DNA of 64,000 nucleotides from Betaproteobacteria bacterium (GTDB lineage Bacteria; Pseudomonadota; Gammaproteobacteria; Burkholderiales; Ga0077523). Position 1 is the stretch's first letter; each line of letters opens with the position of its first letter. A program made the position numbers and the translations under genes. The stretch is taken from the NCBI GenBank assembly GCA_016713305.1, contig JADJPK010000008.1, positions 360,192 to 424,191 on the forward strand, in the 5' to 3' direction. The notes under the pieces are model-generated. The model did no database searches. It saw only the letters and a list, made by a program, of their open reading frames with translations, and was not told the origin of the DNA. Shown piece by piece: positions 14,305-44,418 of the stretch.

Positions 14305-14341
14305 CAGCACGTGACCGAACACATCGCGGGGAGGGGCGCCC

Positions 14342-15847
14342 GTGAACGCCATCGCCGATCTCATGTTGCCGCACGGTCCCGAATGGGACTTCGAGGCGTT
14401 GGAACAGTACGACCGGGTCATTGCGCGCACGGCCGTGGAGTACGGTTTGGACACGTATTTGAATCAGATCGAGATTATCAATTTTGAGCAGATACTCAAT
14501 GCCTACGCCTCCAGCGGCCTGCCGCTCGGCTATCCGCACTGGTCGTTCGGCAAGGCCTTCATCCGGCACGAGCAGGCCTACCGCAAGGGCTACCAGGGTC
14601 TCGCCTACGAGATCGTGATCAACTCCAACCCCTGCATCTCGTATCTGATGGAGGAGAATTCCCTCACGATGCAGGCGCTGGTGATCGCGCACGCGTGCTA
14701 CGGGCACAACTCGTTCTTCAAGGGCAACTACCTGTTCCGGCAGTTCACCCAGGCCGACGCGATCCTCGACTACCTGGTGTTCGCGCGCCGCTATGTCATG
14801 GAGTGCGAGGAGCGCCACGGGGCGGCGGAGGTGGAGGAGGTCATCGATTCCTGCCACGCGCTGATGGACTACGGGGTGGACCGCTATCGCAGGCCCCAGC
14901 CGATCTCCGCACGCGAACGCGAGGCGCGCCGCTCCGAGCAGCAGGAGTACGAGCGGCAGCAGTTCAACGATCTCTGGCGAACCCTGCCTGCCACGGAAGC
15001 CGCGCCCCTGCGATCCGCCGCGCAGTCGTTCCCGCCGGAGCCGGAAGAGAACATCCTCTATTTCGTGGAGAAGTATTCGCCACGGCTCGCGCCCTGGCAG
15101 CGCGAACTGGTGCGCATCGTCCGCAAGCTGGGCCAGTACTTCTATCCGCAGACCCAGACCAAGGTGATGAACGAGGGCTGGGCGACGTTCTGGCATTACA
15201 CGCTGCTCAACCGCCTCTACGAGAAGCGCGTGGTGGACGATGCGTTCATGATCGAATTCCTGCACGACCACACGAACGTCGTCGCGCAGCGCGGGTTCGA
15301 CGAGCGCGGCTATCACGGCATGAATCCCTACGCGCTGGGCTTTGCCATGATGTCCGACATCCGCCGGATGTGCGAGCACCCCACGGCCGAGGATCGCGAG
15401 TGGTTCCCCGATCTGGCCGGCACCGACTGGGTGAAGTCGCTGGACTTTGCCATGCGCAATTTCAAGGACGAATCCTTCATCGCGCAGTACCTGTCGCCCA
15501 AGCTGATCCGCGATTTCCGGCTGTTCGTGATCGCGGACCATGCAGAGGAAACCGATCTGCTCGTGGACAGCATCCACGACGAGCAGGGCTACCGGCGCGT
15601 GCGCCGCATGCTGGCCGATCAGCACCGCCGCGACAACCGCCTGCCCGACGTGCAGGTGACCCGGTTCGACCGCGACGGCGATCGCTCGCTCACGCTCCGC
15701 AACCAGATCTTGCGCGGCAGACCGCTCGCGGACGACGAAACGAACCAGGTCCTCCGCCACCTGGGCCGTCTCTGGGGTTTCACGGTTCGTCTGGAATCCG
15801 TGGACGCAGACGGGCGGATCGAGCGGTTCAGGGAATGGAGGCCCTAG
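14342..15847 (+). CDS. SpoVR family protein (YcgB-like)
   Basis: The GTG at 14342 is the first codon of the track ORF. ...YGLDTYLNQIEIINFEQILNAY...GLAYEIVINSNPCISYLMEENS...ACYGHNSFFKGNYLF... are SpoVR hallmarks. This is the third gene of the prkA operon. Confidence 0.92.
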   Translation: MNAIADLMLPHGPEWDFEALEQYDRVIARTAVEYGLDTYLNQIEIINFEQILNAYASSGLPLGYPHWSFGKAFIRHEQAYRKGYQGLAYEIVINSNPCISYLMEENSLTMQALVIAHACYGHNSFFKGNYLFRQFTQADAILDYLVFARRYVMECEERHGAAEVEEVIDSCHALMDYGVDRYRRPQPISAREREARRSEQQEYERQQFNDLWRTLPATEAAPLRSAAQSFPPEPEENILYFVEKYSPRLAPWQRELVRIVRKLGQYFYPQTQTKVMNEGWATFWHYTLLNRLYEKRVVDDAFMIEFLHDHTNVVAQRGFDERGYHGMNPYALGFAMMSDIRRMCEHPTAEDREWFPDLAGTDWVKSLDFAMRNFKDESFIAQYLSPKLIRDFRLFVIADHAEETDLLVDSIHDEQGYRRVRRMLADQHRRDNRLPDVQVTRFDRDGDRSLTLRNQILRGRPLADDETNQVLRHLGRLWGFTVRLESVDADGRIERFREWRP

Positions 15848-25259: not shown

Positions 25260-25685
25260 TCAGGCGGCTTTCACTTCCTCCAGATCCGCCGTCAGTTTGC
25301 CGCCGTCCTCCAGCAGCACGATGAACAGCTCGCCGCGAAGCTTCCAGGCCGCGGCGACGTCCCGGAGGATCTCGACCACCGTGTGAAGCGCATCAGGGTC
25401 CCGATCCGCCAGGGGGTGCACGGACGAGAGCCGGAGGATCACGCCGCCGGGACCGGGCGGGTTCTCCAGCAGGCATTCCTCCAGCGCGTCCCAGTTGTGG
25501 CCGAACCAGTTGGGGAATTCGAAGATGCGGGCGAACGCCTGCAGAAGCTCGGACTTGTCGGCCGGGCCGGACAGCTGGATCAGCCGGGGTGGTTCTGAAG
25601 AGGTGGGGGGGATCGTCACGTCATGCCCCACATGCCGGTAGACGCCGCCGGAACGCGTCGCGATGATGTCACCGAGAGTTCTCAT
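25260..25685 (-). CDS. Barstar family ribonuclease inhibitor
   Basis: ...ELLQAFARIFEFPNWFGHNWDALEECL...GGVILRL... matches the barstar core (F.FP.YFG.N.DAL.DCL). It is located 55 nt downstream of the RNase gene. Confidence 0.85.
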   Translation of the reverse strand: MRTLGDIIATRSGGVYRHVGHDVTIPPTSSEPPRLIQLSGPADKSELLQAFARIFEFPNWFGHNWDALEECLLENPPGPGGVILRLSSVHPLADRDPDALHTVVEILRDVAAAWKLRGELFIVLLEDGGKLTADLEEVKAA

Positions 25686-25740
25686 GCTGACCTCCTTGCG
25701 CTGCGGGACTTCCGGGCCGGAACCGCGCCTGCCGCGACCG

Positions 25741-26115
25741 TCACGGCTGCCGCTCCACGATGCGGAAGAACGTCGAGTAGTGGTCGGGTGTCCAGTAGGC
25801 GTCGACTCCGCCGCCGGTCACGATGCGCCGCGCGCCCCTGTCCCGGCTCCCCGGCGTCGGCACGGTGTATTCCCGGTAGTGGCCGCGCGGCCGGGGCGGC
25901 AACAGCCGTTCGCGGTTCGAGAATACGCTGCCGTCCTTGGCGTAGGGATACGGTCCGCCTCGGCGGATGAGGGCGAGCGTCGCGCGGCCTTCCGGCGGCA
26001 GCTCTGCCTCCGAGATCTGCAGCAGCGGCAACGGGCGGGCCAGCGCGGGCTCGGCCCCCGCGAACGTCAGGATCGCGGCGAGGACGATCCACCCCAGACG
26101 GAAGAGTCGCAGCAC
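25741..26115 (-). CDS. Secreted guanyl-specific ribonuclease (barnase/RNase Sa, N1/T1 superfamily)
   Basis: GTG at 26115. Signal peptide MLRLFRLGWIVLAAILTFAGAEPALA. ...GGPYPYAKDGSVFSNRERLLP....YREYTVPTPG..DRGARRIV.......YWTPDHYSTFFRI holds the catalytic E/R/H context of microbial RNases. Confidence 0.88.
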   Translation of the reverse strand: MLRLFRLGWIVLAAILTFAGAEPALARPLPLLQISEAELPPEGRATLALIRRGGPYPYAKDGSVFSNRERLLPPRPRGHYREYTVPTPGSRDRGARRIVTGGGVDAYWTPDHYSTFFRIVERQP

Positions 26116-26121
26116 GGCGGA

Positions 26122-27301: not shown

Positions 27302-29083
27302 TCAGGCCGGCAGCCTCCCCTGCGCCTCTTCGACCAGCGCCATGAGCTCGCTGCGTCGTCGCTGGTGCTCCTCGGATCCGGCGTGGCTGTAGTTGAGATT
27401 GAGAAGAAGATGGGTGAAGCGGTCGAACAATGTCTGCGCCTCGGCCTTGCCGGACACCGCGTAGCGTGGTGCGACGACATCCCGCAGCAGCAGCAGCGCG
27501 TCCTTCTGCCGTTCGAGCGCCGTGGAGACATCCACGGGGTCGTAGGCGTTCTGCTGCAGGAATACGGCATCCACCAGACGAGCCTTGAGGTGCGCCACGA
27601 AATCGTCGAGGCTCACGCCTTCCTCACCGGTGACGTGCATCATCTGTTCGATGTCGTGTCCCTGGCGCAGCAGATCGAGCATCACCGCGACGGCGGCGAT
27701 CCAGTCGGGCCCCATCTGCTCGCGCCGCCACCGCTCGAGCTGTTCGGTTGTCCGGGACCACGACAGCAGCGGATCCACCGCAGGGTAGAAGCGGCGGTAG
27801 GCGCGCTCGGCGGAAAGACCCAGGAACGTCTTCACCGTGGCGAGCGTGGCTTGCGTCACCGGTTCGTCGAAATTTCCACCGGCCGGCGAGACCGTTCCGA
27901 TCATCGTCACGCTCCCCTCGGTTCCATCCTGCCGGCGAACGATGCCTGCACGCTCGTACAGCGCGCGAACGGCCGAATCGAGGTAGGCAGGAAACGCTTC
28001 ATCCCCCGGGATCTCTTCCAGCAGTCCGGAGATCTCCCGCAGCGCCTGCGCCCAGCGGGAGGTGGAATCAGCGATCACCAGTGCGTTCAGGCCCATGTGC
28101 CGGTAGTACTCGGCGATCGTGACACCGAGATACAGCGACGATTCGCGCGCCGCGACAGGCATGGAGGAGGTATTGCAGATGAGCACCGTCCTTTCCATGA
28201 GCGTGCCGCCGGTCCTGGGATCCGGCAACCGCGGAAGCTCCGTGATCGTCTCCACGACTTCCCCGGCGCGCTCGCCGCAGGCGACGATCACGACCACGTC
28301 GGCCGCCGCGTAGCGCGATCAGATTCTGCAGCACGGTCTTGCCCGCGCCGAACGGCCCCGGAATGCAGGCGGTGCCCCGGCGCGATGGGAAAGAACTGTC
28401 GATGAGACGCATCGTCGTGACCAGGGGCCGCTCCGGGAGATTCTTTCGGCGGTTCCGGCCGGAAGCATGGGCGCCCGAAGGACGGCGGATCGGCCAGCGC
28501 TTGGCCAGGAGATTTCCCGGCGCTGTTCTCCATCCGCTTCCAGCACCGCGACGATGTCCGCGACGCGCACGCGTCCGCCGCCAAGCGTTGCGACACGCAT
28601 CGGTCTGGCGAGATCGGTCGGTGCAAAGATGTGGTGGCGCACATGACCTTCCTGCACGTGGCCGATCGTCTCTCCTGCCCGGATGGTCGCGCCCGCCGCT
28701 ACGGCCGGCTCGAAATGCCACAGGCGGTCCGCGTCCAGTGCGTCGGCCCGGGCACCGCGCTCCAGGAAGTTGCCGTGGTGCGCGCTCAGGACGTCGAGCG
28801 GATTCTGCAGGCCGTCGTAGACCTGGCCCAGCAGGCCTGGACCGAGCGTGGCCGACAGCAGTTCACCGGTCAGGTCGACCGCCATGCCGACGCGAATACC
28901 GCGTGTGTCCTCGAAGACCTGCAGATCGGCCGTCGCGCCGCGCACTCGCAGCACTTCGGCCTGCAGCCGGCGGCCGCCCACGTGAATGTAGGCCACTTCG
29001 TTCTTGATCACGCGCCCCTCGCCGGCCCGGATCCGGACGAGCGCCTCCTTCACGCCCGTCACCACTGCCTGTGCCCCGATCAC
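27302..29083 (-). pseudogene. V/A-type ATPase catalytic subunit A, disrupted by two frameshifts
   Basis: The GTG at 29083 overlaps the upstream stop (GTGA). The N-terminus (…LQAEVLRVRGATADLQVFEDTRGI..G..V..TGELLSATLGPGLLGQVYDGLQNPL) is in the frame of ORF 28319..29374. The Walker-A segment (RWPIRRP...PLVTTMRLIDSSFPSRRGTACIPGPFGAGKTVLQNLIA) is only in the frame of ORF 28068..28721. The remainder (RYAAADVVVIVACGERAGEV...NTSSMPVAARESS...) returns to the first frame (ORF 27302..28297), passing an in-frame TGA at 28319-28321. The shifts are at about 28505-28515 and about 28316-28326. Confidence 0.88.
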
Positions 29084-29759
29084 GCGTACGGCCCCAGGTG
29101 TCCGGCGATCGTGCGTGCGATCTCCCGCTCCAGACGTGCAGCCGCTCGTCCTTCGTCCTGGCGAAGCCACCGGTCGGCGATGTCCCACTTGAACAGGTAG
29201 ACGAGAACTGCGTCGAATGCGAAGGCATGATCCATGGGCAGGGAACCCAGGTGGTCCCAGACCAGCCCCATCAGCAGCCCTTTCCAGCGCCGCGGTGTCG
29301 TTCGCTTCAAGCAGGGCGCGCGTGTGGAACCCAGGGAAACCACGCTTCGAGCCTGTGGTTGCGTTCGGTCGCATGCCTTGCCGCGTAGGCCGTCCATGCA
29401 GGCACGCCCCACTCCGGGCCCGGCATTGCCTGTCCAGAGCACTGCCGCCTGAGCGCGGCCATCACCGTGCGGATGGCGAGCCGGAATTCGGCGAACGAAC
29501 AGAGCAGGCCCGAGGGATGCCGTGCACGCAACTCACGGAAATGCGACAGCACTGCTTCGTCCGTGTTGTCCGCGGGCTGCCGCTGCCATGCCAGAAAATC
29601 CAGTGCGGACTCGGTCACGGCCCGATCGTCGGGATGCAGCAGCGTCAGCCGGTCGCGCAGTCGATCTGCGGAAATCGGCAGGCGAACCAGCGTGTCGAAC
29701 CGGGCGAGGTGAGGCAGGCTGGCCACCAGCAAGTAGTACTGGCGCTGCGCGGTGGTCAT
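29080..29759 (-). pseudogene. DUF2764 family protein (subunit-C-like component of Bacteroidetes-type V-ATPase operons), disrupted by two frameshifts
   Basis: ATG at 29759 (ATGA overlap with the subunit E stop). The N-terminus MTTAQRQYYLLVASLPHL is DUF2764-like. A sensible sequence has to be read in three frames: ...HATERNHRLEAWFP | GFHTRALLEANDTAALER | WKGLLMGLVWDHLGSLPMDHAFAFDAVLVYLFKWDIADRW...GPYA*. The shifts are at about 29330-29340 and about 29278-29286. The length of 680 nt is not a multiple of 3. Confidence 0.7.
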
Positions 29760-30412
29760 GGGCGGGCGTCCTCCTGCAGGAGCGAACGGTATCGGGGCAG
29801 CAGCCGGTCGAGGAGCATCGCCGCGACCGAGTCGGGCGAGATGTCCACCTCCACAGTTCCCGCCTCGAGGCGCACGCGCACTCCGGCGGAGTTGCTGCGC
29901 GCCACCTGCATCTCGATGCCGCAGGTCAGGAGTTCCACGACCAGCGCGCTTACGTGGGCGTCGAGAACGTCCGGTGCCGACGGCTCGGGATCGCTGTGCG
30001 GTCCGGCGAGCTCGATGCCCACCGCGCCCCGAAGGCCGCAGGCGATCGCGCTCCGCGCGACTTCGTCGACGATGCCTGCGAGGGCATCCCGCTGCTCGAG
30101 GCGTTCCTTCACGAGTCTGCGGACCAATTGCCCGAACAGCGCCTCCAGATCCTGGCGGAGTTGCAGCAGCGCATCCCGATGCGCAAGGCGAACGGCTTCG
30201 CGGGCCGAGCGGCGGTCAGCATCCGCCTGGACGCGTGCTGCCGCGACGATCTCCGCGGCTTGCGCACGAGCCGAGTCCAGCAGCATCGCGGCCTCGCTCT
30301 GGGCCCGCGAAACGATGCGGGCCTGCTCCTTCTCGCCGCGCTCGACGCCTTCCTCGTGCAGGCGCCGGATCAGTTCCTCGACGCCACTTTGCCGTGCGCG
30401 CGCGTCAGCCAC
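29756..30412 (-). CDS. V/A-type ATPase subunit E (intact)
   Basis: GTG at 30412 (GTGGCTGA overlap with the subunit K stop). 218 aa with a charged coiled-coil N-terminus (EELIRRLHEEGVERGEKEQARIVSRAQSEAAMLLDSARAQAAEIV...) and a globular C-terminus, typical of subunit E. Confidence 0.75.
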   Translation of the reverse strand: MADARARQSGVEELIRRLHEEGVERGEKEQARIVSRAQSEAAMLLDSARAQAAEIVAAARVQADADRRSAREAVRLAHRDALLQLRQDLEALFGQLVRRLVKERLEQRDALAGIVDEVARSAIACGLRGAVGIELAGPHSDPEPSAPDVLDAHVSALVVELLTCGIEMQVARSNSAGVRVRLEAGTVEVDISPDSVAAMLLDRLLPRYRSLLQEDARP

Positions 30413-30857
30413 GGCCGATGCCCTGGATGAGCACCAGCGCGAAGGCCAGGGCGAACACGGCGAATCCCTCGACGAAGGCGGCAGGGGCCACTGACAGACC
30501 GAAGACTTCGGGTTTGCTCTTCGACACCTGGATGGCCGACGCACAGCAGTTGCCCTGCTGGACGGCGCTGACCATCTGGGCCAGGCCCGACAGCACGCCG
30601 ATGACGAACAACGCCGTCCCGTTCCCGGCGGTGACCGGCCGCTGTAGCGCGAGCATCACCACGATGCCGTAGATCGCCTGCGACGCGGGCATCGCAGCGA
30701 TGCCGATGAACCGGCCATGGCCGGATTCCGTCTCGAGGAGCGCCCCACAGGCTGCCTGCCCGGCTCGCGCACAACCGAGGATGCTGCCGATGGCAGCCAG
30801 CACCATCGCGCCGTAGATTCCGGTCCAGCCCATCGTCAGTGTCAGGATGTCCGCCAT
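30405..30857 (-). CDS. V/A-type ATPase proteolipid subunit K (intact, 4-TM duplicated hairpin)
   Basis: 150 aa. MADILTLTMGWTGIYGAMVLAAIGSILGCARAG... and ...VAPAAFVEGFAVFALAFALVLI. There is a single carboxylate (E) in the last helix, and a Gln (PASQAIYG) at the equivalent site of the first hairpin. Confidence 0.85.
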   Translation of the reverse strand: MADILTLTMGWTGIYGAMVLAAIGSILGCARAGQAACGALLETESGHGRFIGIAAMPASQAIYGIVVMLALQRPVTAGNGTALFVIGVLSGLAQMVSAVQQGNCCASAIQVSKSKPEVFGLSVAPAAFVEGFAVFALAFALVLIQGIGRG

Positions 30858-32589
30858 GGCTCACTCTCCGTTCTCGCGAATGCCCGGAACGGTCGACCTT
30901 CGCTCCAGACGGCCCAGTTGAAGAATTCGATGAAGTTGAGTCTCAGGCCGTGGACGATGCCGCCCGCGACGCCGAGAACCAGGTTGAGTCCGTGCCCGAC
31001 GATCGCGATGATCCCGGCGAGAATCGGCCCTGCCGCTCCTGCGGTGCCGGACACGCCCGCTGCGAGATCGTTGAAGGCTGCGCCCAGCGATGCACCGGCG
31101 AACCCGAGCGCGAAGAGGCGGAGGTAGCTCAACGTGTCTCCGAGCGCACCCACCACACGCGTGACGCCCAGCAGACCGTCCACGAGCCGATGGCGCCAGT
31201 CGGCCGAGTCGCCGGCCGTGAGAAGCACGGTGGCGAGTCCGAAGACGATGGTCAGCGTCCCGGCTGGCTTCAATGCATCGACGGACATGCCACGGCCGGC
31301 CCACATGACGGCCGCACCCAGAAAGACGAGCACCCAGCCGATGGCGGTTCGACCTGCGGGTTGGCCCCGGCGGTGCCAGGCCACCATGACGTTGGCGGTC
31401 ACGAGGTGCACGATGCCCAGGCAAAGCGAGATGACCAGCAACGTGCCGGCGTCGCCCGCGTCCACGGCGACGAGCCTCGCCGTCCAGGTTCCGGGCGCCG
31501 GCGAGCTTCCGAACCAGCTGCCTACGGCCACACCCCAGACGAACGAAACCCCTGTCGCGAGCGCTGCCAGTGAGCGCAGCCGCCGTCCCGATTCCGTGCG
31601 TCCGATCCGGCGCCACAGCACCGCCAGCAGTCCGGCGAGTAACAGCCCATAGCCTGCATCCGACAGGATCATGGCGAAGAACAGCGCGAAGGCGCCGGCT
31701 ACGAATGCGCTCGGGTCCCAGCCGCCATAGCCGGGAACCAGATAGAAACCGGTGAGATCGCGGCCTGCCGCCAGAACACCCCGGGAATCGAGCAGTGTCG
31801 GCGGATCGTCTTCCGCAGTTGCCGGAGCGGTCGTGAGGGCGAATCCATGGCGCTGCGCGCAATCATGCAGAGCCCCAGCAGCGGTCCGCGGCGCCCATCC
31901 GCGCAGGGCGAACACGGCCGGGGTCACCCTGCCGGCATCGTTCAAGGCCGCGCGGTCCTCCAGGCGTATTACGTTCAACCGGTTGAGTTCCTCCAGCCAC
32001 CGCGCAGCGCGGCGCGCTCGATCGAGATCCTCGATCTCATCCTCCGGCGCTCCAGTTCCTCTTCGAGCCGGGCAGGGACCTGGCGCCAGCGTGCGTACGC
32101 TCGCCGGGAATGCCCCGCGGCTCCTCGGCCGAACGACGACGCTCACGAAGTCAATGGTCTCGATAGACCACCGCCACGGCTCGCTGCGGATTCCAGGCCG
32201 TCGAGCATGTGCGGGGACGATGTAGAACCACAGGCGCAAGTCGCCGGATGCGCTGCGCGGTCGGGCGCTGAAGTCTCCCCAGGCGCCAGGTCCCGGATCC
32301 GGCAGCGCAGGCCTTGACGCTCGTCAGCGAGCCTCTGCAGCCGCGCCTGATCTCCAGCGCCCGGGCCACTGACGTCGGCGGCGAAATCTCTGGCCGGCGG
32401 TGACCAGGCTCGCGCGGAGGAACGCAGGGCCTCGGACGCGCCCTCTGTTGTCCACCCGCTGCACGACCTCGGCCGCGCCGAGCTGACTCAGATGAAGGCA
32501 GCCCAGACGTCCTGCAGCTCCGTCAGGGGATCGGGCTTGTCGCGCAACAGCCTGCGTCGTACTGCGACCTTCAGCGGAACGATGCTCAT
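30842..32589 (-). pseudogene. V/A-type ATPase subunit I (a-subunit), N-terminal third disrupted by multiple frameshifts
   Basis: ATG at 32589 (ATGA overlap with the subunit D stop). MSIVPLKVAV...ELQDVWAAFI runs into TGA at 32488-32490. Plausible sequence then continues in other frames (HLSQLGAAEVV...; ...GDQARLQRLADERQGLRCRIRDL...; ...AYARWRQVPARLEEELERR | EDEIEDLDRARRAARWLEELNRL...). From about 32040 downstream the membrane domain is one intact frame ending ...GLRLNFIEFFNWAVWSEGRPFRAF...*. There are at least 5 frame changes, and 1748 nt is not a multiple of 3. Confidence 0.75.
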
Positions 32590-33184
32590 GGCCAGCTGGC
32601 CTTCTCGCCGGGACGACTCCGCGCCTTGGCGATCTTGGCCCGCACCATCGCGACGCGCTCCGCGTCGCCAAGCGCAATCTTGATCCGCCGGATGTCCGCG
32701 CGCCTGCGAGGATCAGCACCCCCTTGAGCAGGTTCGCCCTCTGGATGCGCGGCCGAGGGCTGCGGTGAGTCGCGACGCGCTCCGTCCGGACGGCCGCGAC
32801 CTCCGGTCCATCAATCGCTGAGCTCTGTCCGATGTGTTATCCACCCAGTGCGGCCGGGCCAGCATGCCATAGTCCAGACCCGCGTGTGCACCGGTCGGCG
32901 GCAGCCGGGGCAGCAGCGTGCCGAGCAGGTCCACTCCGTGCCCCACGCGCTGACCCGGACCAGGTTGTCCAGCGTGATCTCTTCGTTGGCCATCATCGGC
33001 ACCGCGGAGGCCGCCACTGCTGCGAGGGCTCGGCGCCGATCCAGGAGCGCCCCGAGCGCCCTGCGCTCCGAGGCCAGCTCCGTGGCGAGCTGCCGCCGCT
33101 TGAGATCCAGGGAAGGCAACGCGGGCGGTAGAGCAAGTCGCGCCGGCGCCGGAGCGAGCCCTTCTTGAGCGCCAGATCACGCAT
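32586..33184 (-). pseudogene. V/A-type ATPase subunit D, disrupted by about four frameshifts
   Basis: ATG at 33184 (MRDLALKKGSLRRRRDLLYR). Recognisable D sequence is then read successively in different frames: LPSLDLKRRQLATELASERRAL...EEITLDNLVRVS | GHGVDLLGTLLPRLPP...YGMLARPHWVDNTSDRAQRL | ...IQRANLLKGVLI | PRRRADIRRIKIALGDAERVAMVRAKIAKA...WP*. The shifts are near 33118, 32948, 32745 and 32710. Each step is +1 in frame, consistent with four 1-nt losses (599+4=603). Confidence 0.72.
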
Positions 33185-34524
33185 CCCCCGGCGCTCCCTC
33201 GCGGCGGCAGATCGGGCCGAGGACTTGTCGATGAGCGACTGCCGGATGCCGATCTGCTGCGGTTCGAAGCACTCTGCCAGCGTCTGCCAGCAGCGATCGA
33301 GTGCCGCTTCCAGCCCCATCGCGGCATCGATGCGCATGAAGCGGTCGCGGAACATGCGCCCGAACGCCAGCAGCTGCCGGTCGAACGCCGACAGCTCGAA
33401 TGCCATGGCGCGCTTGCGCTCCGCGTCCTCGGCCGCGGCGTAGAGACGGATCATCGCGTTTGCCACCTGACCATGATCGTCGCGCGTCACCTTGTCACGA
33501 CGTGCTTCAGGCCGCGACAGCGAGCCGAACGGATCGAGGACGCCGCCATGCAGGTAGTACTGCCCTCGGTGATGTAGCCGGTGTTATCCGGCACCGGGTG
33601 GGTGACATCGTGGCCCGGCATGGTGGTCACGGAAAGGATCGTCACCGAACCCGCATCGCGGAACTGGCAGGCTTTCTCGTATCGCCGCGCCAGACGCGAA
33701 TACAGATCGCCGAGGTAGCCTCGGTTGGACGGCACGCGCTCCATGGTGATGGCAATCTCCTTCATCGCGTCCGCGTAGGCCGTCATGTCGGTGAGCAGCA
33801 CCAGGACCCGGCGGCCCCGGATGGCGAAGTTCTCGGCCACGGCCAGCGCCATGTCGGGGACCAGCAGGCGTTCGACGATGGGGTCGGACGCGAGATTGAC
33901 GAACATCACGGTGCGCGAGAGCACACCGCGGTCATCGAACGCCATTCGGAACACGTGGAAATCGTCGAAGGAAAGCCCCATCCCCCCGAAGACGACGACG
34001 TCGGCGTCCGCCTGGAAGCCGACACGGGCCAGCAGCGCGTTGTACGGCTCGCCCGGCACGGAAGATGGAGATCTTCTGGCTCTCGACGAGGCTGTTGAAC
34101 ACGTCGATCATCGGAATGTCGGTGCGGATCATCCTCTGAGGCACGCGCCGCATGACCGGGTTCACCGACGGGCCGTCGATGGCGATCTCCGGCTGGTCGC
34201 CCAGACCGGGGCCGCCGTCCCTGGGGACGCCCGTTCCTCCGAACACGCGTCCGAGGATGTGCTCCGAGAAGCGTGCCTTCAGCGGCGAGCCGGTGAATCG
34301 CACGCCCGCCGCGGTGGATAGACCGCGGGTGCCCTCGAACACCTGCAGCGTGACGATGTCGCCGTCCAGTTCGATCGCACGGGCGAGCGAGCTCGCCCCG
34401 TCGGGATTCTCGATGATCGCCAGTTCGTCGATGGCCCGCCGGGCGCCCGCACGCGCACGATGTCTCCCACGATGTCGCGCAGGCCGCGGAAGACGAGGGG
34501 GCTGGACGCCGACATGCGATTCAC
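33177..34524 (-). pseudogene. V/A-type ATPase subunit B, disrupted by four frameshifts
   Basis: The GTG at 34524 overlaps the TonB-like stop (GTGA); an alternative ATG is at 34515. The pieces are MSASSPLVFRGLRDIVGDIVRVRAPG | AIDELAIIENPDG...LQVFEGTRGLS...[24 protein letters not shown] | [14 protein letters not shown]...[50 protein letters not shown]...[13 protein letters not shown]...[13 protein letters not shown] | [17 protein letters not shown]...[18 protein letters not shown]...ERRG | DA*. The shifts are near 34440 (-1), 34065 (-2), 33565 (-1) and in the C5/G5 run 33185-33189 (-1). 1348+5=1353 nt restores a 451-codon frame ending at TGA 33177-33179. Confidence 0.85.
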
Positions 34525-35222
34525 CCGGTCCTGCGTGACTGCAGCCGCAGAACGACCGGCTGAGGCATGCTTTCGGGAGGGACGTCCTGCATCGGCGGCA
34601 GCGATTCGAGCGCGCGCTCGATTCGTCGGTCCAGATCGGCGTCGCCGGTGTTCTGGCGGAAACGAAGCCGCGAAAGCCGGCCGTCCTTCGCGATCCAGAC
34701 GCTGACCACCGCACGGAACTCCTCCTTCCGTAGATCGGGCAGCGACATCAGCTCATCCGTCAGGAAGCGCTCGAGCTGCGACGTGTACGAGGCATATTCC
34801 AGCAGGGGATTGAGGCGACCCGATCGGCTCTTGTCGTCCAGGTTCTCGCCGATGGTGGTGATGTCTCTCCCACCGCGCCGGGCCGCCAGGCCGAACGAAT
34901 CACCGACCGCGCCGCCTTCCTCGTTCACGCCGAGCTGGTCGCCGGGCGCGGGCGCTTCCTGGGGTGCGTCGCTGGGACTCTGGACGATCTTCTCGACGTC
35001 CTCCTCTTCCACCTCGGCCGGCTTTTCCGGCTCCGGCTCCTTCGGCTTGGGCGGAGTCCGCTCCGGGTTCAGCAAGGCCACGCGCTGCGCGGAGGACCGC
35101 TTCTGCGTCTGATCGCCCAGCAGGAGGTCCCGTCCGTAGACCGCCGCCAGGGCTACCGCCGCGACGACCCCGGCGCGAAGCGCGAGCCGCCAGGGCCGCC
35201 CGAGCGGATGAGCCTCATCCAC
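34521..35222 (-). CDS. TonB-like energy transducer (N-terminal anchor, Pro/Glu/Lys-rich spacer, TonB_C-like domain)
   Basis: TM segment LALRAGVVAAVALAAVYG. The spacer reads PERTPPKPKEPEPEKPAEVEEEDVEK. The C-terminus ...EEFRAVVSVWIAKDGRLSRLRFRQNTGDADLDRRIERALESLPPM...VVLRL resembles the TonB C-terminal fold pattern. GTG start at 35222. Confidence 0.7.
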   Translation of the reverse strand: MDEAHPLGRPWRLALRAGVVAAVALAAVYGRDLLLGDQTQKRSSAQRVALLNPERTPPKPKEPEPEKPAEVEEEDVEKIVQSPSDAPQEAPAPGDQLGVNEEGGAVGDSFGLAARRGGRDITTIGENLDDKSRSGRLNPLLEYASYTSQLERFLTDELMSLPDLRKEEFRAVVSVWIAKDGRLSRLRFRQNTGDADLDRRIERALESLPPMQDVPPESMPQPVVLRLQSRRTG

Positions 35223-35249
35223 GGGACCGCTCCGTCGCGGCGGGCCGCT

Positions 35250-35654
35250 TCATTTCACGAGCGCCTGCGTGACCAGGCCGAGCTGGGTGATCTGCAACCG
35301 TTTCATCACGTCCAGGACTTCGATCACGCGCTGATACTGGATCTGCGCATCGCCCTTCACCACGACGGGCAGCGTCGGATCGGCGGCACGAAACTGGCGA
35401 AGCTTGTCCTCCAGTTCGGCCACCGTGACCACGGCCGTGTCGAGGTATATCCGTCCGTCGGCCGTGATGGTCACGGCCTTGGTGCGGGGCTTTGCGATGG
35501 AGGGCGCCGCACTGGCCTTGGGCAGCGTCACGGATATGCCCTGAACGGTCGCCGTAGCCATCACGATGAAGATGATGAGCAGGTTCCAGGCGAGATCCAT
35601 GAGCGGGGTCAGATTCAGCTCGTCGTAGATCTTGTTGTCGTGGCCGAAACGCAT
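35250..35654 (-). CDS. exbD: ExbD/TolR family biopolymer transport protein
   Basis: 134 aa. ...ELNLTPLMDLAWNLLIIFIVMAT...VTLPKA...ITADGRIYLD...PVVVKGDAQIQYQRVIEVLDVMK..I matches the canonical ExbD/TolR layout. Confidence 0.9.
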   Translation of the reverse strand: MRFGHDNKIYDELNLTPLMDLAWNLLIIFIVMATATVQGISVTLPKASAAPSIAKPRTKAVTITADGRIYLDTAVVTVAELEDKLRQFRAADPTLPVVVKGDAQIQYQRVIEVLDVMKRLQITQLGLVTQALVK

Positions 35655-35663
35655 GGCGCCTCC

Positions 35664-37487
35664 TTATGCCTTCCGGTAGCTGCGCGCAATGCGGCTGAGC
35701 AGCTCGTTGCTGAACAGTTCCATCGCCGTCGTGAGGGCGCGGATCCGCAGTGCCAGAAAGTTGTACGCGAACATCACGGGGATCGCCACGACGAGACCCG
35801 CCACCGTCGTCGTGATCGCCGCAGCGACTCCGGGTGCGATGGTGTTGACGTTCACGTCGCCCTGCATGGCGATGGTCGCGAAGGTGACCATGATGCCCAC
35901 CACGGTTCCGAGCAGCCCCAGGAACGGAGCGCCGCTGACGGAGAGCGTGAGCATCACCATGTTCTTGTTCATCCGGTTCGCCTCCTCGACCATGGCGGAG
36001 TCGATGGCCGCCTTCACCACATCCATGTCGGAAGCGTCCATGCCGGCGTGAGCAGGTGACTCGGCCGCCAGCGACTTGCGGACTTCACCGATGGCTGCGG
36101 CATACATGCGGAACAGGCTCGAGTCCCGGAGAACGCCGCCTGCTTTCGGCGTCGAATCCGCGGAGGAGGGATCGCTGCCCGCCAGCGCGGCCAGATCGCC
36201 CTGCAGATCGCGAAACCTGCCGAGAAATCCGGCATTGGCGTTCTCCATGCGCCGCAGCAGTCGAGCCTTGACGATGATCGCCTCCGTGCTGAGGAAGCCC
36301 AGAATCACGATGAGGCCGATGATCACCCAAGCGTCACGGCTCACCGCGCCGGCCAGGACGCGCAGCAACGCCAGATACTGCCCTCCGTCTGCCTGTGCCT
36401 CGTCCTGACCGTATTCCACGATCCGCGCGTCCGGCCCGTGGCCGAGCGCCGCGAGCCGGATCCAATCCTTGCTGCGGGCAGTCCTGGAAAATTGCAGTTC
36501 GTCGAGATCGCCGGAGAAGCCCGGTATCTCCGCAATGGCGCCCACGGTAACGGGTCCCGCCAGCTCGGGGAGCTTTGCCGCCACGGCTGCCACTTCCTCT
36601 CCATCGACGTAAACCGTGAGCCGGTCCGATGCGGTCACCGCCACGTGGTGCCAGGTTCCCGGCGAGAGGCGGTCGATCGACGGCGTTTCGATCTGCGAAC
36701 CCGGAGCACGGATGCGGGCCTGAAGGGACGCGCCCTTGACGTCGATCACGAATTCGCCGTCGTTTCCCGCGAGAGTGAGAAGACGCCCGCCGCCATCCAG
36801 CGTGGAAGTCTTGATCCACGCGGTGATGGAAAGCGCGCCGCCTGCCGCAACCTTCAAGGCAGGCTTTGCCGGGACCGTGAACGAGGAGGTGGCGGCAAAG
36901 CGCAGCGCATGATCGATGGCGCCCTCCGCGATCGAGGCTGCGGAAGAGTTCTGCGCGCCGTTCTGGTAGGCGGTGGAATCGACCGGTGCGGACTCGTTCT
37001 GCGCGAAGTGGTACGCGGCAGTCTGCGCGTCGTCGAAAGTGCCCGCCGCGTCCGCCCCGGCGGGCGCGTTCGGATTTCCGTAGTAGAGCCACACGACGTC
37101 GTTGTCCGTCTTCTGGTGCAGCCTGGGCACACGCACCCAGACGAGCGCAATGCCGTTCAGTCCGTCGAAGCGCTCCACATGGAACTTGAGAGGTGTCTTG
37201 TCGTCGCCGGCGACAAAACGGAGATCCTCGCCGTTCTCCTTGGCGTCGACGAACGGAAAGTTGCCTGTGTGCAGACGCACGAGCACAGGCGCCTCGTCCA
37301 CGGGCCCGGAGAGCGCCGCGCCGTCACGCGCGGTGTGAAGCGTGATCTTCTTGCGATACGACCAGTCCGCATTCCACCATGCGAAGGCGGAGACCGGCGC
37401 CAGCATCGAGACCGTGGCGACCAACGCGAGAATTGCCACCAGTACAGACGTCCAGCGTGAATTCGTCGGGGTTCGTGCGAGACTCAT
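35664..37487 (-). CDS. DUF2341 + LamG/concanavalin-like periplasmic domain fused to a MotA/TolQ/ExbB proton-channel domain
   Basis: ATG at 37487, 607 aa, with a signal/anchor segment. WWNADWSYRKKITL...DLRFV..D..T.L.FHVE.FD......VWVRVP is DUF2341-like. ...DLDELQFSRTARSKDW is a LamG-like ending. The C-terminus ...MLTLSVSGAPFLGLLGTVVGIM.TF......GDVN...IAPGVAAAITTTVAGLVVAIP..FAYNFL is the ExbB/TolQ signature. Confidence 0.88.
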   Translation of the reverse strand: MSLARTPTNSRWTSVLVAILALVATVSMLAPVSAFAWWNADWSYRKKITLHTARDGAALSGPVDEAPVLVRLHTGNFPFVDAKENGEDLRFVAGDDKTPLKFHVERFDGLNGIALVWVRVPRLHQKTDNDVVWLYYGNPNAPAGADAAGTFDDAQTAAYHFAQNESAPVDSTAYQNGAQNSSAASIAEGAIDHALRFAATSSFTVPAKPALKVAAGGALSITAWIKTSTLDGGGRLLTLAGNDGEFVIDVKGASLQARIRAPGSQIETPSIDRLSPGTWHHVAVTASDRLTVYVDGEEVAAVAAKLPELAGPVTVGAIAEIPGFSGDLDELQFSRTARSKDWIRLAALGHGPDARIVEYGQDEAQADGGQYLALLRVLAGAVSRDAWVIIGLIVILGFLSTEAIIVKARLLRRMENANAGFLGRFRDLQGDLAALAGSDPSSADSTPKAGGVLRDSSLFRMYAAAIGEVRKSLAAESPAHAGMDASDMDVVKAAIDSAMVEEANRMNKNMVMLTLSVSGAPFLGLLGTVVGIMVTFATIAMQGDVNVNTIAPGVAAAITTTVAGLVVAIPVMFAYNFLALRIRALTTAMELFSNELLSRIARSYRKA

Positions 37488-37876: not shown

Positions 37877-38968
37877 ATGACTGACGAAAAATTTCATCGC
37901 ATTCGCGAGATGGCCTATCGGATCTGGATGGACGAGGGCTGCCCTCACGGACGCGACATGGACCATTGGCTGCGCGCCCAGTACGCCGTGGACAGCATCG
38001 GCTCCGAATCGCCCTACGCGACGTCGACGTCGGTGACGGAAGTCCTCATTGGCGCGGAAGAAGCGGCGGAGGAGCGGACGAGGGTGGCGTTGGCGCGCCC
38101 CGGTCCGAAGACCACTGCGCGTAAGCGCGCATCCGGTTCGTCCCCGCGACGAACTGACCTCGCAGAGGCGCGGATCTCCCCCTGCGTGTCCGCATGCGGG
38201 AGGTCTGCCGCTGCCTTTCGTCCAGGAGGTCCGGTGCCGGACGTCGGCCCCTGTGAATACTCGCTCGGGCGTCCCGCCGACAGGGCTTCACCGGTCCTCA
38301 CCGCAGCGCCGCCGCTCCGAGAACGGGGCGCCGCCGGCGTGGGCCGGCTCGGCGAAATTTGCATCCCACCCTTGTGGTCCGTCTTGTCATCGCGCCATTC
38401 CGGCTGCCACGCGATCCGTGTACATTCCCCGGACCGGCCCTGGAGTACGGGCCGGCCACTCGTCCTCGCGGAGATGTTCCATGACGCTGCTGACCACTCT
38501 GAAAGATGTCTTCCGCCCACCGATTCTCCCGGCCGTGCAGCCAGGCACCGGTGTGCAGGTGTGCTTCGGCACGGTCACGGTGGAGGAGGCGCTCGCGGCG
38601 GAAGCCGCGCGATACGACGCCCAGACCGCCAACGATTTCGCCGCCATGGAGCGCCTGTTCGGAGACGACCTCGTGTATGTCCACTCGAGCACGAACGTGG
38701 ACACCAAGGCGAGCTTCATCGAATCCATGCGCTCGGGCGCTGTTCGCTATCGCCGCATGACACTGGGCGACGTCACGGTGCGAATCTATGGCGGTGTGGC
38801 GATCGTCTCGGGTGCCGCGAACTTCGATGTGACGGCCAACGGGCAGGAACTGTCGCTCTCTCTCATGTTTCACAGCATCTGGGCCCAGCGTCCCGCCGGC
38901 CTGCAGTTCGTGTCCTGGCAGGCGACCCGTCTTCCCGCCAGGGCGTGAGACCGCCATGGCCTGGCTGA
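37877..38968 (+). CDS. DUF2934 domain protein; 3' extent doubtful
   Basis: ATG at 37877 after RBS ggagg. MTDEKFHRIREMAYRIWMDEGCPHGRDMDHWLRAQ is a classic DUF2934 motif. Only about the first 110 codons look protein-like, yet no stop occurs in this frame until 38968, so the ORF would fully overlap the next gene in another frame. Confidence 0.45.
   Translation: MTDEKFHRIREMAYRIWMDEGCPHGRDMDHWLRAQYAVDSIGSESPYATSTSVTEVLIGAEEAAEERTRVALARPGPKTTARKRASGSSPRRTDLAEARISPCVSACGRSAAAFRPGGPVPDVGPCEYSLGRPADRASPVLTAAPPLRERGAAGVGRLGEICIPPLWSVLSSRHSGCHAIRVHSPDRPWSTGRPLVLAEMFHDAADHSERCLPPTDSPGRAARHRCAGVLRHGHGGGGARGGSRAIRRPDRQRFRRHGAPVRRRPRVCPLEHERGHQGELHRIHALGRCSLSPHDTGRRHGANLWRCGDRLGCRELRCDGQRAGTVALSHVSQHLGPASRRPAVRVLAGDPSSRQGVRPPWPG
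38481..38948 (+). CDS. NTF2-like/SnoaL-like (DUF4440-type) protein
   Basis: ATG at 38481 in ORF 38049..38948. ...AEAARYDAQTANDFAAMERLFGDDLVYVHSSTNVDTKASFIESMRSGAVRY......V.IYGGVAIVSG......ANGQE....L.F...W is the typical DUF4440 pattern. Confidence 0.75.
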   Translation: MTLLTTLKDVFRPPILPAVQPGTGVQVCFGTVTVEEALAAEAARYDAQTANDFAAMERLFGDDLVYVHSSTNVDTKASFIESMRSGAVRYRRMTLGDVTVRIYGGVAIVSGAANFDVTANGQELSLSLMFHSIWAQRPAGLQFVSWQATRLPARA

Positions 38969-43614: not shown

Positions 43615-44240
43615 GGTTTCTCGTCGTCGACGATCACCCGCTCATCCGGCGCGGAATCCGGCAGCTGCTGGAAGAGGCATACGTCCAGGCGGAGGTGGCA
43701 GAGGCCGATTCCGGCGAGGCGGCGCTCGATGAGCTGCGCAGGCAGCGCTTCGATCTCGTGATCCTCGATCTGTCGCTCCCGGGCATGTCCGGGCTGGACG
43801 TGCTGGCGAAGGCCATCGAGCGCCGGCCTGATCAACGCGTGCTCATGCTGAGCATGCATTCCGAGACGGAACTGGGCGTGCAGGCGCTGAGGCTCGGGGC
43901 CCGCGGCTACATCACCAAGGACAACGCCACCGAGCAGCTCTTCGGTGCCATCTCCAAGATCCTCGGCGGCGGGCGCTTCATCACCGCCGAACTGGCCGAA
44001 GTGCTGGCGGACAGGCTCGCCATGCCGCCGCTCGCCCTCCCGCACGAGGCGCTTTCGTCCCGCGAATTCCGGGTGATGCGCATGCTCGCCGCGGGTCAGA
44101 CGCCCACCGAGATCGCGCAGGCGCTGGCATTGTCGGTCAAGACCGTGAGCACCTACCGTTCGCGCATCCTCGACAAGATGGGGCTGCAGAACAACGCGGA
44201 TCTCACCCGCTACTGCCTCAAGCACACGCTGATCGACTAG
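43611..44240 (+). CDS. NarL/FixJ-family response regulator (REC + LuxR-type HTH)
   Basis: ATGA overlap with the kinase stop. MRFLVVDDHPLIRRGI...DLVILDLSLPGMSG...ARGYITKD...LSSREFRVMRMLAAGQTPTEIAQALALSVKTVSTYRSRIL.KMG. Confidence 0.93.
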   Translation: MRFLVVDDHPLIRRGIRQLLEEAYVQAEVAEADSGEAALDELRRQRFDLVILDLSLPGMSGLDVLAKAIERRPDQRVLMLSMHSETELGVQALRLGARGYITKDNATEQLFGAISKILGGGRFITAELAEVLADRLAMPPLALPHEALSSREFRVMRMLAAGQTPTEIAQALALSVKTVSTYRSRILDKMGLQNNADLTRYCLKHTLID

Positions 44241-44418
44241 ACCTGCTCCCGCCACGCGGTGTGTTCGCACCGGCCGGCGATTCTTTCCGCAGGCCTCCCG
44301 GCGGGCGCTGCCGCGGATACCTGTAGGAATCCGCCTACGCCGTCCCCGGCGGTCTCCCACATCGCATCGCGACTTGCACCGATGGGCGCGCGCGGCCGTT
44401 GCGCCGATAGTGCCTCCC

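Follow-up and report, generated by a model that had tools for sequence, protein, structure and literature searches.

A Tol/Ton-like envelope motor trio beside rotary ATPase genes in a betaproteobacterial contig and in related loci

The window analysed here is a 64,000-nucleotide stretch of a betaproteobacterial contig, in which a first-pass annotation had described ten co-directional minus-strand genes. Homologues of all ten were found in the claimed order, ExbB-like, ExbD-like, TonB-like, B, D, I, K, E, X and A, and Pfam backed the assignments, with MotA_ExbB, DUF2341 and Laminin_G_3 in 35667-37487, ExbD in 35253-35654, TonB_2 in 34524-35222 and, downstream of the motor genes, pieces of ATP-synt_ab together with V_ATPase_I and ATP-synt_C. 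The ten genes had been taken to be intact and translationally coupled, which did not hold, since five ATPase genes are frameshifted as assembled: the ExbB-like, ExbD-like, TonB-like, K and E genes are whole, and B, D, I, X and A are broken. The features are as follows.

37877-38100, plus strand: small DUF2934 gene, divergent from the ExbB-like gene; Pfam DUF2934 2.1e-12; end uncertain, ORF open to 38968
35664-37487, minus strand: ExbB/TolQ-like channel subunit; intact, 607 aa; signal peptide, periplasmic DUF2341 and LamG extension, C-terminal MotA_ExbB
35250-35654, minus strand: ExbD/TolR-like subunit; intact, 134 aa; conserved membrane Asp (TPLMDLAWNLLIIF)
34521-35222, minus strand: TonB/TolA-like protein; intact, 233 aa; N-terminal membrane helix, Pro/Glu/Lys-rich spacer, C-terminal TonB_2
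33177-34515, minus strand: subunit B; not intact; frameshifts near 34436 (-1), 34060 (-2) and 33566 (-1), possibly another near the C-terminus
32586-33184, minus strand: subunit D; not intact; about four frameshifts (33117, 32947, 32747, 32712)
30842-32589, minus strand: subunit I (a-type stator); C-terminal ~400 codons intact, N-terminal ~190 codons with about nine frameshifts (32510-32048)
30405-30857, minus strand: subunit K; intact, 150 aa; duplicated four-helix proteolipid with the full Na+-ligand set
29756-30412, minus strand: subunit E; intact, 218 aa from GTG; single frame collinear with L003 E (42-44% identity)
29080-29759, minus strand: DUF2764-like subunit X; not intact; two frameshifts near 29315 and 29278
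27302-29083, minus strand: catalytic subunit A; not intact; four frameshifts between 28512 and 28316

Inspection of the DNA located every junction string that the annotation had quoted. The ExbB-like stop TAA (35664-35666) is followed by GGAGG and the ExbD ATG at 35654, the ExbD-like TGA lies at 35250 and the TonB-like GTG at 35222, and the TonB-like and B genes meet in GTGA (34521-34524). Further downstream, the B/D junction is ATGCGTGA, D and I share ATGA (32586-32589), I and K overlap by 16 nt, the K/E junction is GTGGCTGA, E and X share ATGA (29756-29759), and X and A share GTGA (29080-29083). While the GTG at 34524 is indeed in frame with B, the start of B is more probably the ATG at 34515, which lies 5 nt past the TonB-like TGA and is kept in the related loci L003 and L004. 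On the other side of the array, DUF2934 genes were also found just upstream of ExbB in L004 and L087, and the DUF2934 gene is a possible accessory neighbour of the array.

The ExbB-like protein is 100% identical to P0121 ('MAG: DUF2341 domain-containing protein [Betaproteobacteria bacterium]'), carries a periplasmic DUF2341 and LamG extension of ~380 residues (Pfam MotA_ExbB 5.7e-27, DUF2341 8.7e-17, Laminin_G_3 4.1e-17) and has the subfamily signature T549 in GDVNVNTIAPG. The ExbD-like protein (Pfam ExbD 1.2e-26) shows 90% identity to its L003 counterpart, and the TonB-like protein matches TonB_2 (1.7e-08, 34.9 bits against a cut-off of 22). The proteins are family homologues of the TonB-ExbB-ExbD-type motor that had been annotated, but they are not bona fide ExbB, ExbD and TonB: the motor falls below every NCBIfam equivalog cut-off and is slightly closer to TolQ/TolR. 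The top NCBIfam match was TolQ for the ExbB-like protein (110 bits, cut-off 221) and TolR for the ExbD-like protein (85 bits, cut-off 127), tonB_Cterm scored 21 bits (cut-off 27) with the TonB-like protein, and no SxxxH motif was found in the TonB-like membrane helix when aligned with 11 homologues.

The ATPase subunit set matches, as had been proposed, that of the seven-gene DUF2764-containing V-ATPase known from Bacteroides, where the operon has been described (PMC10197588); the L003 B protein passes NF002555, and L003 X matches DUF2764 weakly (8.5e-05, 22.8 bits against a cut-off of 24.1). Subunit K matched ATP-synt_C (2.8e-18) and NCBIfam NF007200 (163 bits against a cut-off of 108), and E matched the NCBIfam V-type subunit E models at 6e-19, below cut-off. 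The start of I (MSIVPL) agrees with L003, and its intact C-terminal part holds the YLRLFALG arginine motif (Pfam V_ATPase_I 8.7e-09 on 30845-32323). The Pfam domains of B are spread over three frames, and the tblastn match to L003 B breaks into four HSPs whose frames alternate (65-89% identity). For D, the HSPs fell into three frame segments, and a Pfam search of every single-frame piece returned no match; those for X, 50-54% identical to L003 X, also lay in differing frames. In A, the Walker A/P-loop GPFGAGKT is out of frame, a stop at 28319-28321 interrupts the starting frame, PLVTTMRLIDSSFPSRRGTACIPGPFGAGKTVLQNLIA is readable solely in another frame, and the Pfam domains are divided between 28322-29461 and 27305-28318. 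A horizontal origin had also been suggested for this block; a recent transfer lacks compositional support, GC being 0.68 in the block as in the window, and the closest homologues of A, 60-66% identical, are spread over many phyla.

The extent of the damage was assessed by frameshift-aware alignment against the L003 proteins, ORF lists and tblastn against intact relatives. The alignment needed 22 internal events of 1-2 nt (three in B, four in D, nine in I, two in X and four in A), whereas in intact relatives, aligned in the same way as a control, spurious events numbered about one per gene, lay at gene ends except for a compensated internal pair in the D gene of L096, and were absent from the interior of I. 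The events are concentrated in the fastest-evolving segments and are clustered, 13 falling in 1.07 kb against none in a neighbouring 2.7 kb stretch. Among ~20 events there was no nonsense codon after frame correction and no indel above 2 nt; no excess amino-acid divergence from outgroups was detected in the frame-corrected proteins, GC3 remains high in the corrected frames, and the frameshift sites showed no association with GC content or long homopolymers. Contig L090, 96.6% identical, parts from the window at precisely the position of the first frameshift (34437, about codon 27 of B) and is unrelated beyond it. The rest of the window contains long intact genes with full-length Pfam matches, ~20 events within 7.2 kb standing against roughly 55 kb intact; since the sole other frameshift is in a GGDEF-EAL gene near 45516, the damage is specific to the ATPase block.

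Because all events are of 1-2 nt, without nonsense codons or excess divergence, and are clustered, and because L090 breaks off at 34437, a consensus error in a strain-variable region seems somewhat likelier than very recent pseudogenisation, although the lack of association between the sites and GC content or long homopolymers counts against an error. Pseudogenisation, in which the ATPase genes would truly have been inactivated not long ago and the window would show the linkage in decay, with a trio running on ordinary proton-motive force, has a considerable chance of being right, if short of an even one. It would account for the confinement of the frameshifts to 7.2 kb and for the second frameshifted gene, as well as for the lack of any A fragment of the source MAG in the protein database, which is expected of an annotated pseudogene; the only close relative, L090, being foreign from codon ~27 of B is compatible with a silencing insertion or deletion, and motor-only relatives exist. 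On the other hand, neutral decay should yield far more substitutions than indels, together with varied deletion sizes, which sits poorly with the uniformly small events, their strong clustering, the high GC3 and the undetectable excess of amino-acid change.

The neighbourhood search that the first-pass annotation had proposed, for the motor beside DUF2764-type V-ATPase genes, was positive in other genomes, and the adjacency is not an accident of one genome. The intact order ExbB-ExbD-TonB-B-D-I-K-E-X-A was found in L003, L087, L088/L089 and L096, all independent metagenome contigs, with gaps of 0-70 nt or overlaps, and L004 has the same beginning, its contig being cut inside B. Since the ExbB proteins of the same-order loci are just 46-61% identical to that of the window, the two modules have stayed linked through long divergence. 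In L098 and L115 it is the V-type operon that precedes the motor. Where the neighbour is an N-ATPase, whose AtpR was confirmed with Pfam, it follows the motor in L091 and L111, precedes it in L005 and is divergently oriented in L119. In L112 and L121/L122 the motor is followed, and in L108 preceded, by a second V/A-type operon, which includes an F subunit and a c subunit of a single hairpin. In total, ~15 distinct loci with seven arrangements and three ATPase families are linked, on the same strand except in L119, and the motor/ATPase junction spans 5 nt in the window and is overlapping in L087 and L112. The V-type operon was also found without ExbB nearby, in L001/L002. These findings lead us to regard the window locus, tentatively, as one copy of a conserved two-module array of motor and rotary ATPase.

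All linked loci fall into one ExbB super-clade (95/100 NJ bootstrap), and one inner clade (61/100) contains 11 linked loci and no informative unlinked locus, clade support in these trees, all NJ, being moderate. Among the more distant DUF2341-ExbB loci of reference genomes, none of 80 had an ATPase within 10 kb; these loci carry TpsB, a giant TPS exoprotein, an outer-membrane Porin_5 and a coiled-coil protein, none of which was found in the linked loci or in the whole window. In five distinct members of the super-clade whose flanks are long (L078, L100, L101, L102/L037 and L104), the motor trio stands alone, so that an ATPase need not accompany the motor, at least in cis.

Judged from sequence, the most likely explanation of the linkage, though one held with reserve, is that the ATPase may be an accessory ATP-driven ion pump giving ion-motive force to the Tol/Ton-like motor. 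The ATP-driven local ion circuit of the first-pass annotation is compatible with the data and is the mechanism we favour as a hypothesis; it is from the gene arrangement that we infer co-transcription and ion coupling.

Rather unlikely, but the best placed of the other explanations of the linkage, is a co-regulated stress island without a direct ion circuit, both modules being needed under one shared condition, for instance anoxia or stress from acid, detergents or uncouplers, the ATPase for cytoplasmic ion and pH homeostasis and the motor for envelope integrity, each off the bulk gradient. Accessory V- and N-type ATPases have been tied to membrane or acid stress (PMC5376962, PMC10197588); the motor scores nearest TolQ/TolR, is alone in some relatives, and the coupling ion appears to vary among the linked ATPase types. 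However, three unrelated ATPase operons are joined in both orientations to one ExbB subfamily and to no other family member, a specificity of recruitment beyond what general stress co-regulation predicts, and the junctions are very tight. Physical coupling, with the ExbB/ExbD/TonB-like proteins binding the ATPase as an extra stator, anchor or regulator, would suit the tight junctions and the smaller number of stalk subunits in seven-gene V-type and N-type enzymes than in classical ones (PMC2881411, PMC10197588), but it is highly improbable, as the third linked type has its own I, K, F, A, B and other conserved operon genes and is linked all the same, and in other genomes (L001/L002) the V-type operon functions in the absence of ExbB. 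That mobile ATPase operons landed beside the motor by chance, or that both hitch-hike on a shared mobile island with no functional relation, deserves very little credence despite the transfer of N-ATPase operons as units (PMC2881411), an integrase fragment upstream of ExbB in L171 and flanking genes that vary from locus to locus, given the ~15 loci, seven arrangements and three ATPase families set beside none among 80 in the sister family, an estimate that by chance fewer than ~1% of genomes would have a rotary ATPase operon within 10 kb of any given gene, and a linkage kept down to ~40% ExbB identity.

For an accessory ion pump, the coupling ion appears to differ among the linked loci. The sole PDB match of K was the Na+ K ring of Enterococcus hirae (2BL2), whose T64, Q65, Q110 and E139 align with S59, Q60, Q101 and E130 of the window K, so that all Na+ ligands are kept. 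The c subunit of the second V/A-type has the carboxylate alone (H+-like), and an N-ATPase ring of similar motif that has been characterised selects H+ (PMC5376962); a circuit specific to sodium therefore cannot apply to the linked loci in general. Three points favour the pump: the conserved Na+ ligands of K, the contribution to fitness that the Bacteroides homologue of the V-ATPase makes when the membrane is stressed (PMC10197588), and the proposal that the B. pseudomallei N-ATPase acts as an efficient H+ pump driven by ATP (PMC5376962).

The first-pass annotation knew of no system coupling a TonB-type motor with a V/A-ATPase in one operon, and our literature search likewise found no publication describing a motor-ATPase linkage; as far as that search reached, the pairing of an envelope motor trio with three kinds of rotary ATPase is previously undescribed. 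If the frameshifts are real, the motor in the window works without the ATPase, which cannot be made from the sequence as assembled. In the proposed mechanism, the first module would be a Tol/Ton-like envelope motor composed of the ExbB/TolQ homologue, the ExbD/TolR homologue and the TonB/TolA-like protein, and the second an accessory rotary ATPase directly after it on the same strand, in the window the seven-gene DUF2764-containing V-type. In intact relatives, the ATPase would hydrolyse ATP to export Na+, or H+ in sister loci, and the ions would re-enter through the ExbB/ExbD-type channel; in the periplasm or at the outer membrane, their return would do mechanical work on the TonB/TolA-like protein. 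Such a circuit may keep the motor energised while the respiratory proton-motive force is unreliable.

Homologues of the V-ATPase subunits B, D, I, K, E, X and A lie directly after a three-gene motor in the window, X being a DUF2764-like subunit, and the block ends at 27302. The window has 68% GC, and an NCBI protein of a Betaproteobacteria bacterium MAG matches its ExbB-like protein with 100% identity. All three motor genes are intact.

Motor genes of the window
35667-37487, minus strand: ExbB/TolQ-like gene, intact; signal peptide, DUF2341, LamG-type domain and C-terminal MotA_ExbB
35253-35654, minus strand: ExbD/TolR-like gene, intact; ExbD domain
34524-35222, minus strand: TonB/TolA-like gene, intact; TonB_2 domain

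The trio shares with TonB-ExbB-ExbD and TolQ-TolR-TolA the MotA_ExbB and ExbD domains, the membrane Asp and the three-gene order. The ExbD-like protein matches PF02472 with 93.7 bits and carries the membrane Asp within TPLMDLAWNLLIIF, and the third protein resembles TonB and TolA in its membrane helix, Pro-rich spacer and C-terminal TonB_2 domain (34.9 bits against a cut-off of 22). In contrast to Ton and Tol components, the window ExbB has a signal peptide and a periplasmic DUF2341 and LamG extension of about 380 residues, and the NCBIfam equivalog models were missed. The ExbB-like protein scored 65 bits on TIGR02797 (exbB; cut-off 206) and a higher but also insufficient 110 bits on TolQ (cut-off 221), satisfying only the superfamily domain PF01618. 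The ExbD-like protein fell under all equivalog cut-offs, with TolR as its best score, and the TonB-like protein fell under that of tonB_Cterm; the Ser/His (SxxxH) motif was absent from the TonB-like membrane helix in all 12 homologues aligned. Since the equivalog cut-offs were missed and the TonB-like helix lacks SxxxH, the motor is, as judged from sequence, a separate branch of the MotA/TolQ/ExbB superfamily and not a proven Ton or Tol system. Among the window ORFs scanned with Pfam there was no TonB-dependent receptor, TolB or Pal domain, although a receptor may lie elsewhere in the genome, and the genes that follow the TonB/TolA-like gene encode the ATPase, so that the Tol-Pal gene order is not found here. 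DUF2341 appendages of MotA/ExbB homologues have been listed with function unknown (PMC12505986).

The first-pass annotation had described a TonB-ExbB-ExbD-type motor and a seven-gene V/A-type ATPase in one overlap-coupled array, and had suggested a search of gene neighbourhoods in other genomes. That search recovered the same array in relatives, and the linkage between motor and ATPase is conserved.

Loci with a rotary ATPase operon adjoining the DUF2341-ExbB motor (percentages, ExbB identity to the window)
L003 (closest intact relative), 61%: intact ExbB-ExbD-TonB-B-D-I-K-E-X-A, with overlapping or 3-nt junctions
L004, 60%: same beginning, then cut by the contig end
L087, 48%: the same array, intact up to the contig end within A
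L088/L089, 47%: the array is again intact; L088 breaks off after K and L089 within D
L096, 47%: same array, intact; the contig ends in A
L098 and L115: same V-type operon, upstream of ExbB
L005: N-ATPase operon upstream of the ExbB motor
L091 and L111: N-ATPase operon downstream of the motor
L119: N-ATPase operon divergent from the motor
L112 and L121/L122: a different V/A-type operon, starting at most about 170 nt from the TonB-like gene and overlapping it in L112
L108: the second V/A-type operon, preceding ExbB

Altogether, about 15 distinct linked loci show seven arrangements and draw on three ATPase families. The N-ATPase operons have the order atpD-C-Q-R-B-E-F-A-G, with AtpR confirmed by Pfam, and the second V/A-type operon contains I, a single-hairpin c subunit, F, A and B. 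All-against-all clustering for a further gene common to the linked loci, such as an outer-membrane partner, returned motor and ATPase genes only. A small DUF2934 gene just upstream of ExbB recurs in three linked loci only; the window ORF is open for 386 codons, compared with about 80 aa in its homologues.

DUF2934 genes just upstream of ExbB
Window, about 37877-38100, plus strand
L004 (relative at 60% ExbB identity), 7229-7492
L087 (relative at 48% ExbB identity), 2956-3195

GGDEF-EAL or EAL genes were observed beside the motor or the V-ATPase operon in several loci (L100, 7836-9698; L093, 15-689; L001, 12337-13392), and the window has a GGDEF-EAL gene about 7 kb upstream of the motor. These neighbours may hint at c-di-GMP control or may be coincidence.

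The linkage is confined to one subfamily of ExbB. With one genome per species searched using the family alignment, we obtained 80 wider-family DUF2341-ExbB loci at 35-44% identity, none of which has an ATPase within 10 kb. The wider family, at 35-45% identity, has the same ExbB architecture and the same ExbB-ExbD-TonB-like order as the window clade, but differs from it in signature positions such as T549 and in its neighbours. Upstream lie TpsB and a giant two-partner-secretion (TPS) protein. The TonB-like gene is followed by a gene for a Porin_5 outer-membrane protein in 65 of 85 loci, by one for a 224-aa coiled-coil protein in 56 and, often, by a rotamase gene. All of these neighbours are missing from both the ATPase-linked loci and the whole window. 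This wider-family context (L007-L086, L006 and L170; for example L015, relative +2837 to +4570) is apparently undescribed, and it suggests that a Ton/Tol-like motor is connected with the secretion of giant adhesins.

In neighbour-joining trees, an ExbB super-clade with bootstrap 95/100 takes in all linked loci. An inner clade (61/100) consists of 11 linked loci and four whose flanks were too short to score; the loci left unscored for short flanks are L093, L095, L097, L099 and L171. Our first definition of the clade failed the bootstrap since L097 and L099 nest inside it, and the clade was redefined. Five distinct super-clade members with long flanks have the three-gene motor alone, in varied contexts. 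All 16 linked proteins in which the position aligns carry the signature residue T549 (in GDVNVNTIAPG), as do 8 of the 86 other proteins. The window ExbB belongs to the super-clade, carries T549 and has a rotary ATPase operon directly adjacent, the three features by which we propose to recognise an ATPase-linked subfamily. These results show that the association of motor and ATPase is conserved, subfamily-specific and repeatedly arisen, with operon-like junctions.

The usual order of the seven-gene V-ATPase in Bacteroides, Porphyromonas and Chlamydia genomes is E-DUF2764-A-B-D-I-K, of which the order in the window and L003, B-D-I-K-E-X-A, is a cyclic permutation. The set is the same, namely A, B, D, E, I, a duplicated K and a DUF2764-like subunit, with no C, F, G or H. 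The L003 B homologue passes NF002555 (655 bits; cut-off 431) and the window K subunit passes NF007200 (163 bits; cut-off 108). The operon differs in that its X falls short of the Pfam DUF2764 cut-off (L003 X against PF10962, 22.8 bits; cut-off 24.1), although the place of X between E and A is conserved; in that five of the window genes are frameshifted; in its position behind an ExbB-ExbD-TonB-like trio; and in its host, a betaproteobacterial MAG. The subunit set matches that of the described seven-gene Bacteroides V-ATPase operon, and the Na+ ligands noted for the K subunit of B. fragilis are also kept in the window K (PMC10197588). The only solved structure matched by the window K was 2BL2, the K ring of the Enterococcus hirae Na+ V-ATPase (Ntp; E = 1.8e-05, at low identity). 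S59, Q60, Q101 and E130 align to T64, Q65, Q110 and E139 of 2BL2, so that the carboxylate and all four side-chain Na+ ligand positions are kept, one with Thr replaced by Ser. The Ntp enzyme is an ATP-driven ion exporter, the role we infer for the window-type ATPase; it has no linked motor genes, and its operon has more subunits.

The N-ATPase (atpDC-QR-BEFAG; Dibrova et al. 2010) takes the place of the V-ATPase in L005, L091, L111 and L119 and is absent from the window. At these sister loci the operons follow the hallmark gene order and include AtpR, and their c subunit is of the two-carboxylate kind. N-ATPase is an accessory enzyme proposed to act as an ATP-driven pump, and the one characterised N-type ring with the two-carboxylate motif is H+-selective (PMC5376962); the N-ATPase literature examined makes no mention of a link to ExbB/TolQ genes. 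The c subunit of the second V/A-type operon is without Na+ ligands and looks H+-type. A strictly sodium circuit was rejected as a general rule on account of this c subunit and the H+-selective N-type ring.

In the window itself the ATPase block is broken as assembled. The junction strings quoted in the first-pass annotation are all present in the sequence, and the B subunit is likelier to start at ATG 34515, 5 nt past the TonB-like stop, since this ATG is conserved in relatives; the overlapping GTG shares its frame. K and E are whole ORFs, whereas none of B, D, I, X and A had a full-length frame in ORF listings and stop-to-stop maps. B has three internal frameshifts, and its Pfam domains lie in three frames. 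In A, the Walker A sequence GPFGAGKT is legible only in a shifted frame, the starting frame stopping at 28319-28321, while L003 and L098, a locus with the same V-type operon, have an intact Walker A loop in one frame. The C-terminal 400 or so codons of I are intact, with the arginine motif in LSYLRLFALG, but the N-terminal 190 or so are frameshifted, and no full-length protein is encoded as assembled. The X copy is frameshifted and has no DUF2764 match. Thus the linkage claimed in the first-pass annotation holds in relatives, but the intact, translationally coupled array does not hold for this copy, and the broken ATPase genes should not be annotated as translatable as assembled.

Frameshift-aware alignment of the window DNA with L003 proteins located 22 internal events of 1-2 nt (three in B, four in D, nine in I, two in X and four in A) and no in-frame stops in the ATPase genes after frame correction. 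Controls on the intact and more divergent L098 and L096 gave about one call per gene, at gene ends, and none inside I; the exception was one compensated internal pair in D of L096. Over-calling by the aligner was ruled out by these near-clean controls, and because the control calls are few and terminal, the events are real features of the window sequence. The rest of the window contains long genes with full-length Pfam matches, with a single exception. This is a PAS-GGDEF-EAL gene (44233-46607, plus strand), the only disruption found outside the ATPase block, with a frameshift near 45516 that separates positions 2-72 of the GGDEF profile from positions 72-160 and EAL, which are read in a different frame. 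Among the relatives, the near-identical contigs L121 (244-2171) and L122 (274-2201), which carry the second V/A-type ATPase, have an ExbB-like gene split into two frames near codon 65.

We lean towards consensus or assembly error as the source of the frameshifts. Several observations fit error or a very recent event. Every event is 1-2 nt long, with no nonsense codons and no larger deletions, and codon-position GC is still gene-like. The events are tightly clustered: D and the N-terminal part of I hold 13 of them within 1.07 kb, the following 2.7 kb has none, and the clusters fall in the fastest-evolving segments. In a relative-rate test for relaxed selection the frame-corrected window proteins and the L003 proteins lay equally close to the outgroups, so that a long period of decay is ruled out, although very recent decay and error look alike in this test. 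Real decay into pseudogenes is a quite plausible alternative: the damage is limited to one dispensable operon, a second gene in the window is frameshifted, and relatives with the motor alone exist. The only close relative found, L090, a 2.4-kb metagenome contig that is 96.6% identical over window 36686-34437, bears on both readings. It switches to unrelated sequence no more than 1-2 nt from the first B frameshift, and its final 108 nt (2300-2407) have no match anywhere in the 64-kb window. A strain-level rearrangement, an insertion or a chimeric contig end could account for the break, which indicates structural strain variation at this spot that could impair a consensus; it is just as compatible with an insertion that shut the operon down. 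Local GC was rejected as a cause (on average 0.689 in bins with events against 0.677 in those without), as were homopolymers, the contexts being short GC-rich runs and not long homopolymers.

A promoter and terminator scan of 26.5-38.5 kb found nothing above shuffled expectation and hence has no bearing on transcription units. Composition was discarded as a sign of horizontal transfer, the GC and skew of the ATPase block equalling those of the rest of the window, and a tRNA scan for island borders found none. Four features elsewhere in the window were also observed; the PrkA - DUF444 - SpoVR cluster is presumably a stress operon of the yeaG-yeaH-ycgB type.

Other features of the window
25263-26121, minus strand: a pair of genes for a barnase-type ribonuclease and a barstar inhibitor; the ATPase block lies about 1.2 kb upstream
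26125 to about 27100: zinc-dependent dehydrogenase gene, between the barnase/barstar pair and the ATPase block
10650-15844, plus strand: intact PrkA - DUF444 - SpoVR three-gene cluster
52264-60288, plus strand: MoxR-type AAA ATPase, DUF58, BatA and VWA gene cluster; its first ORF is 865 aa, with the AAA domain in the C-terminal third only

In the working that we tentatively favour for intact loci of this subfamily, the ATPase would export Na+ or H+ at the expense of ATP, and return flow through the ExbB/ExbD channel would energise the TonB/TolA-like protein, so that the motor would have its own supply when the bulk proton-motive force (PMF) is weak. This working agrees with the part in stress that has been proposed for accessory V- and N-type ATPases; its main rival is plain co-regulation of motor and ATPase under the same stress, with no dedicated circuit. 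Physical coupling of the motor to the ATPase and chance adjacency both seem improbable. In a bolder and less probable reading, the loci would encode a self-powered envelope motor, in which a Tol/Ton-type 5:2 ion-driven motor has its own ATP-driven pump. A dedicated Na+ or H+ cycle would then turn ATP into periplasmic or outer-membrane mechanical work independently of respiration, in a partnership assembled at least three times (with V-type, second V/A-type and N-type enzymes). A link of motor and pump is directly testable, since intact loci are present on several contigs.

Full-text searches found DUF2341 only as an unexplained appendage of MotA/ExbB homologues, and no paper linking ExbB/TolQ genes with V- or N-type ATPases. 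The component families are known, and as far as we can tell their conserved partnership is undescribed. In the current view, Ton and Tol motors rely on the bulk inner-membrane PMF, since no energy source exists in the outer membrane itself. If the proposed circuit is true, envelope work would have a second route of energy supply, via ATP, probably used under conditions that compromise the PMF. The N-type and seven-gene V-type ATPases, of which the roles are largely obscure so far (PMC5376962; PMC10197588), would gain a concrete physiological partner, and there would be a handle on the DUF2341/LamG appendage left unexplained in a recent survey of MotA/ExbB homologues (PMC12505986).
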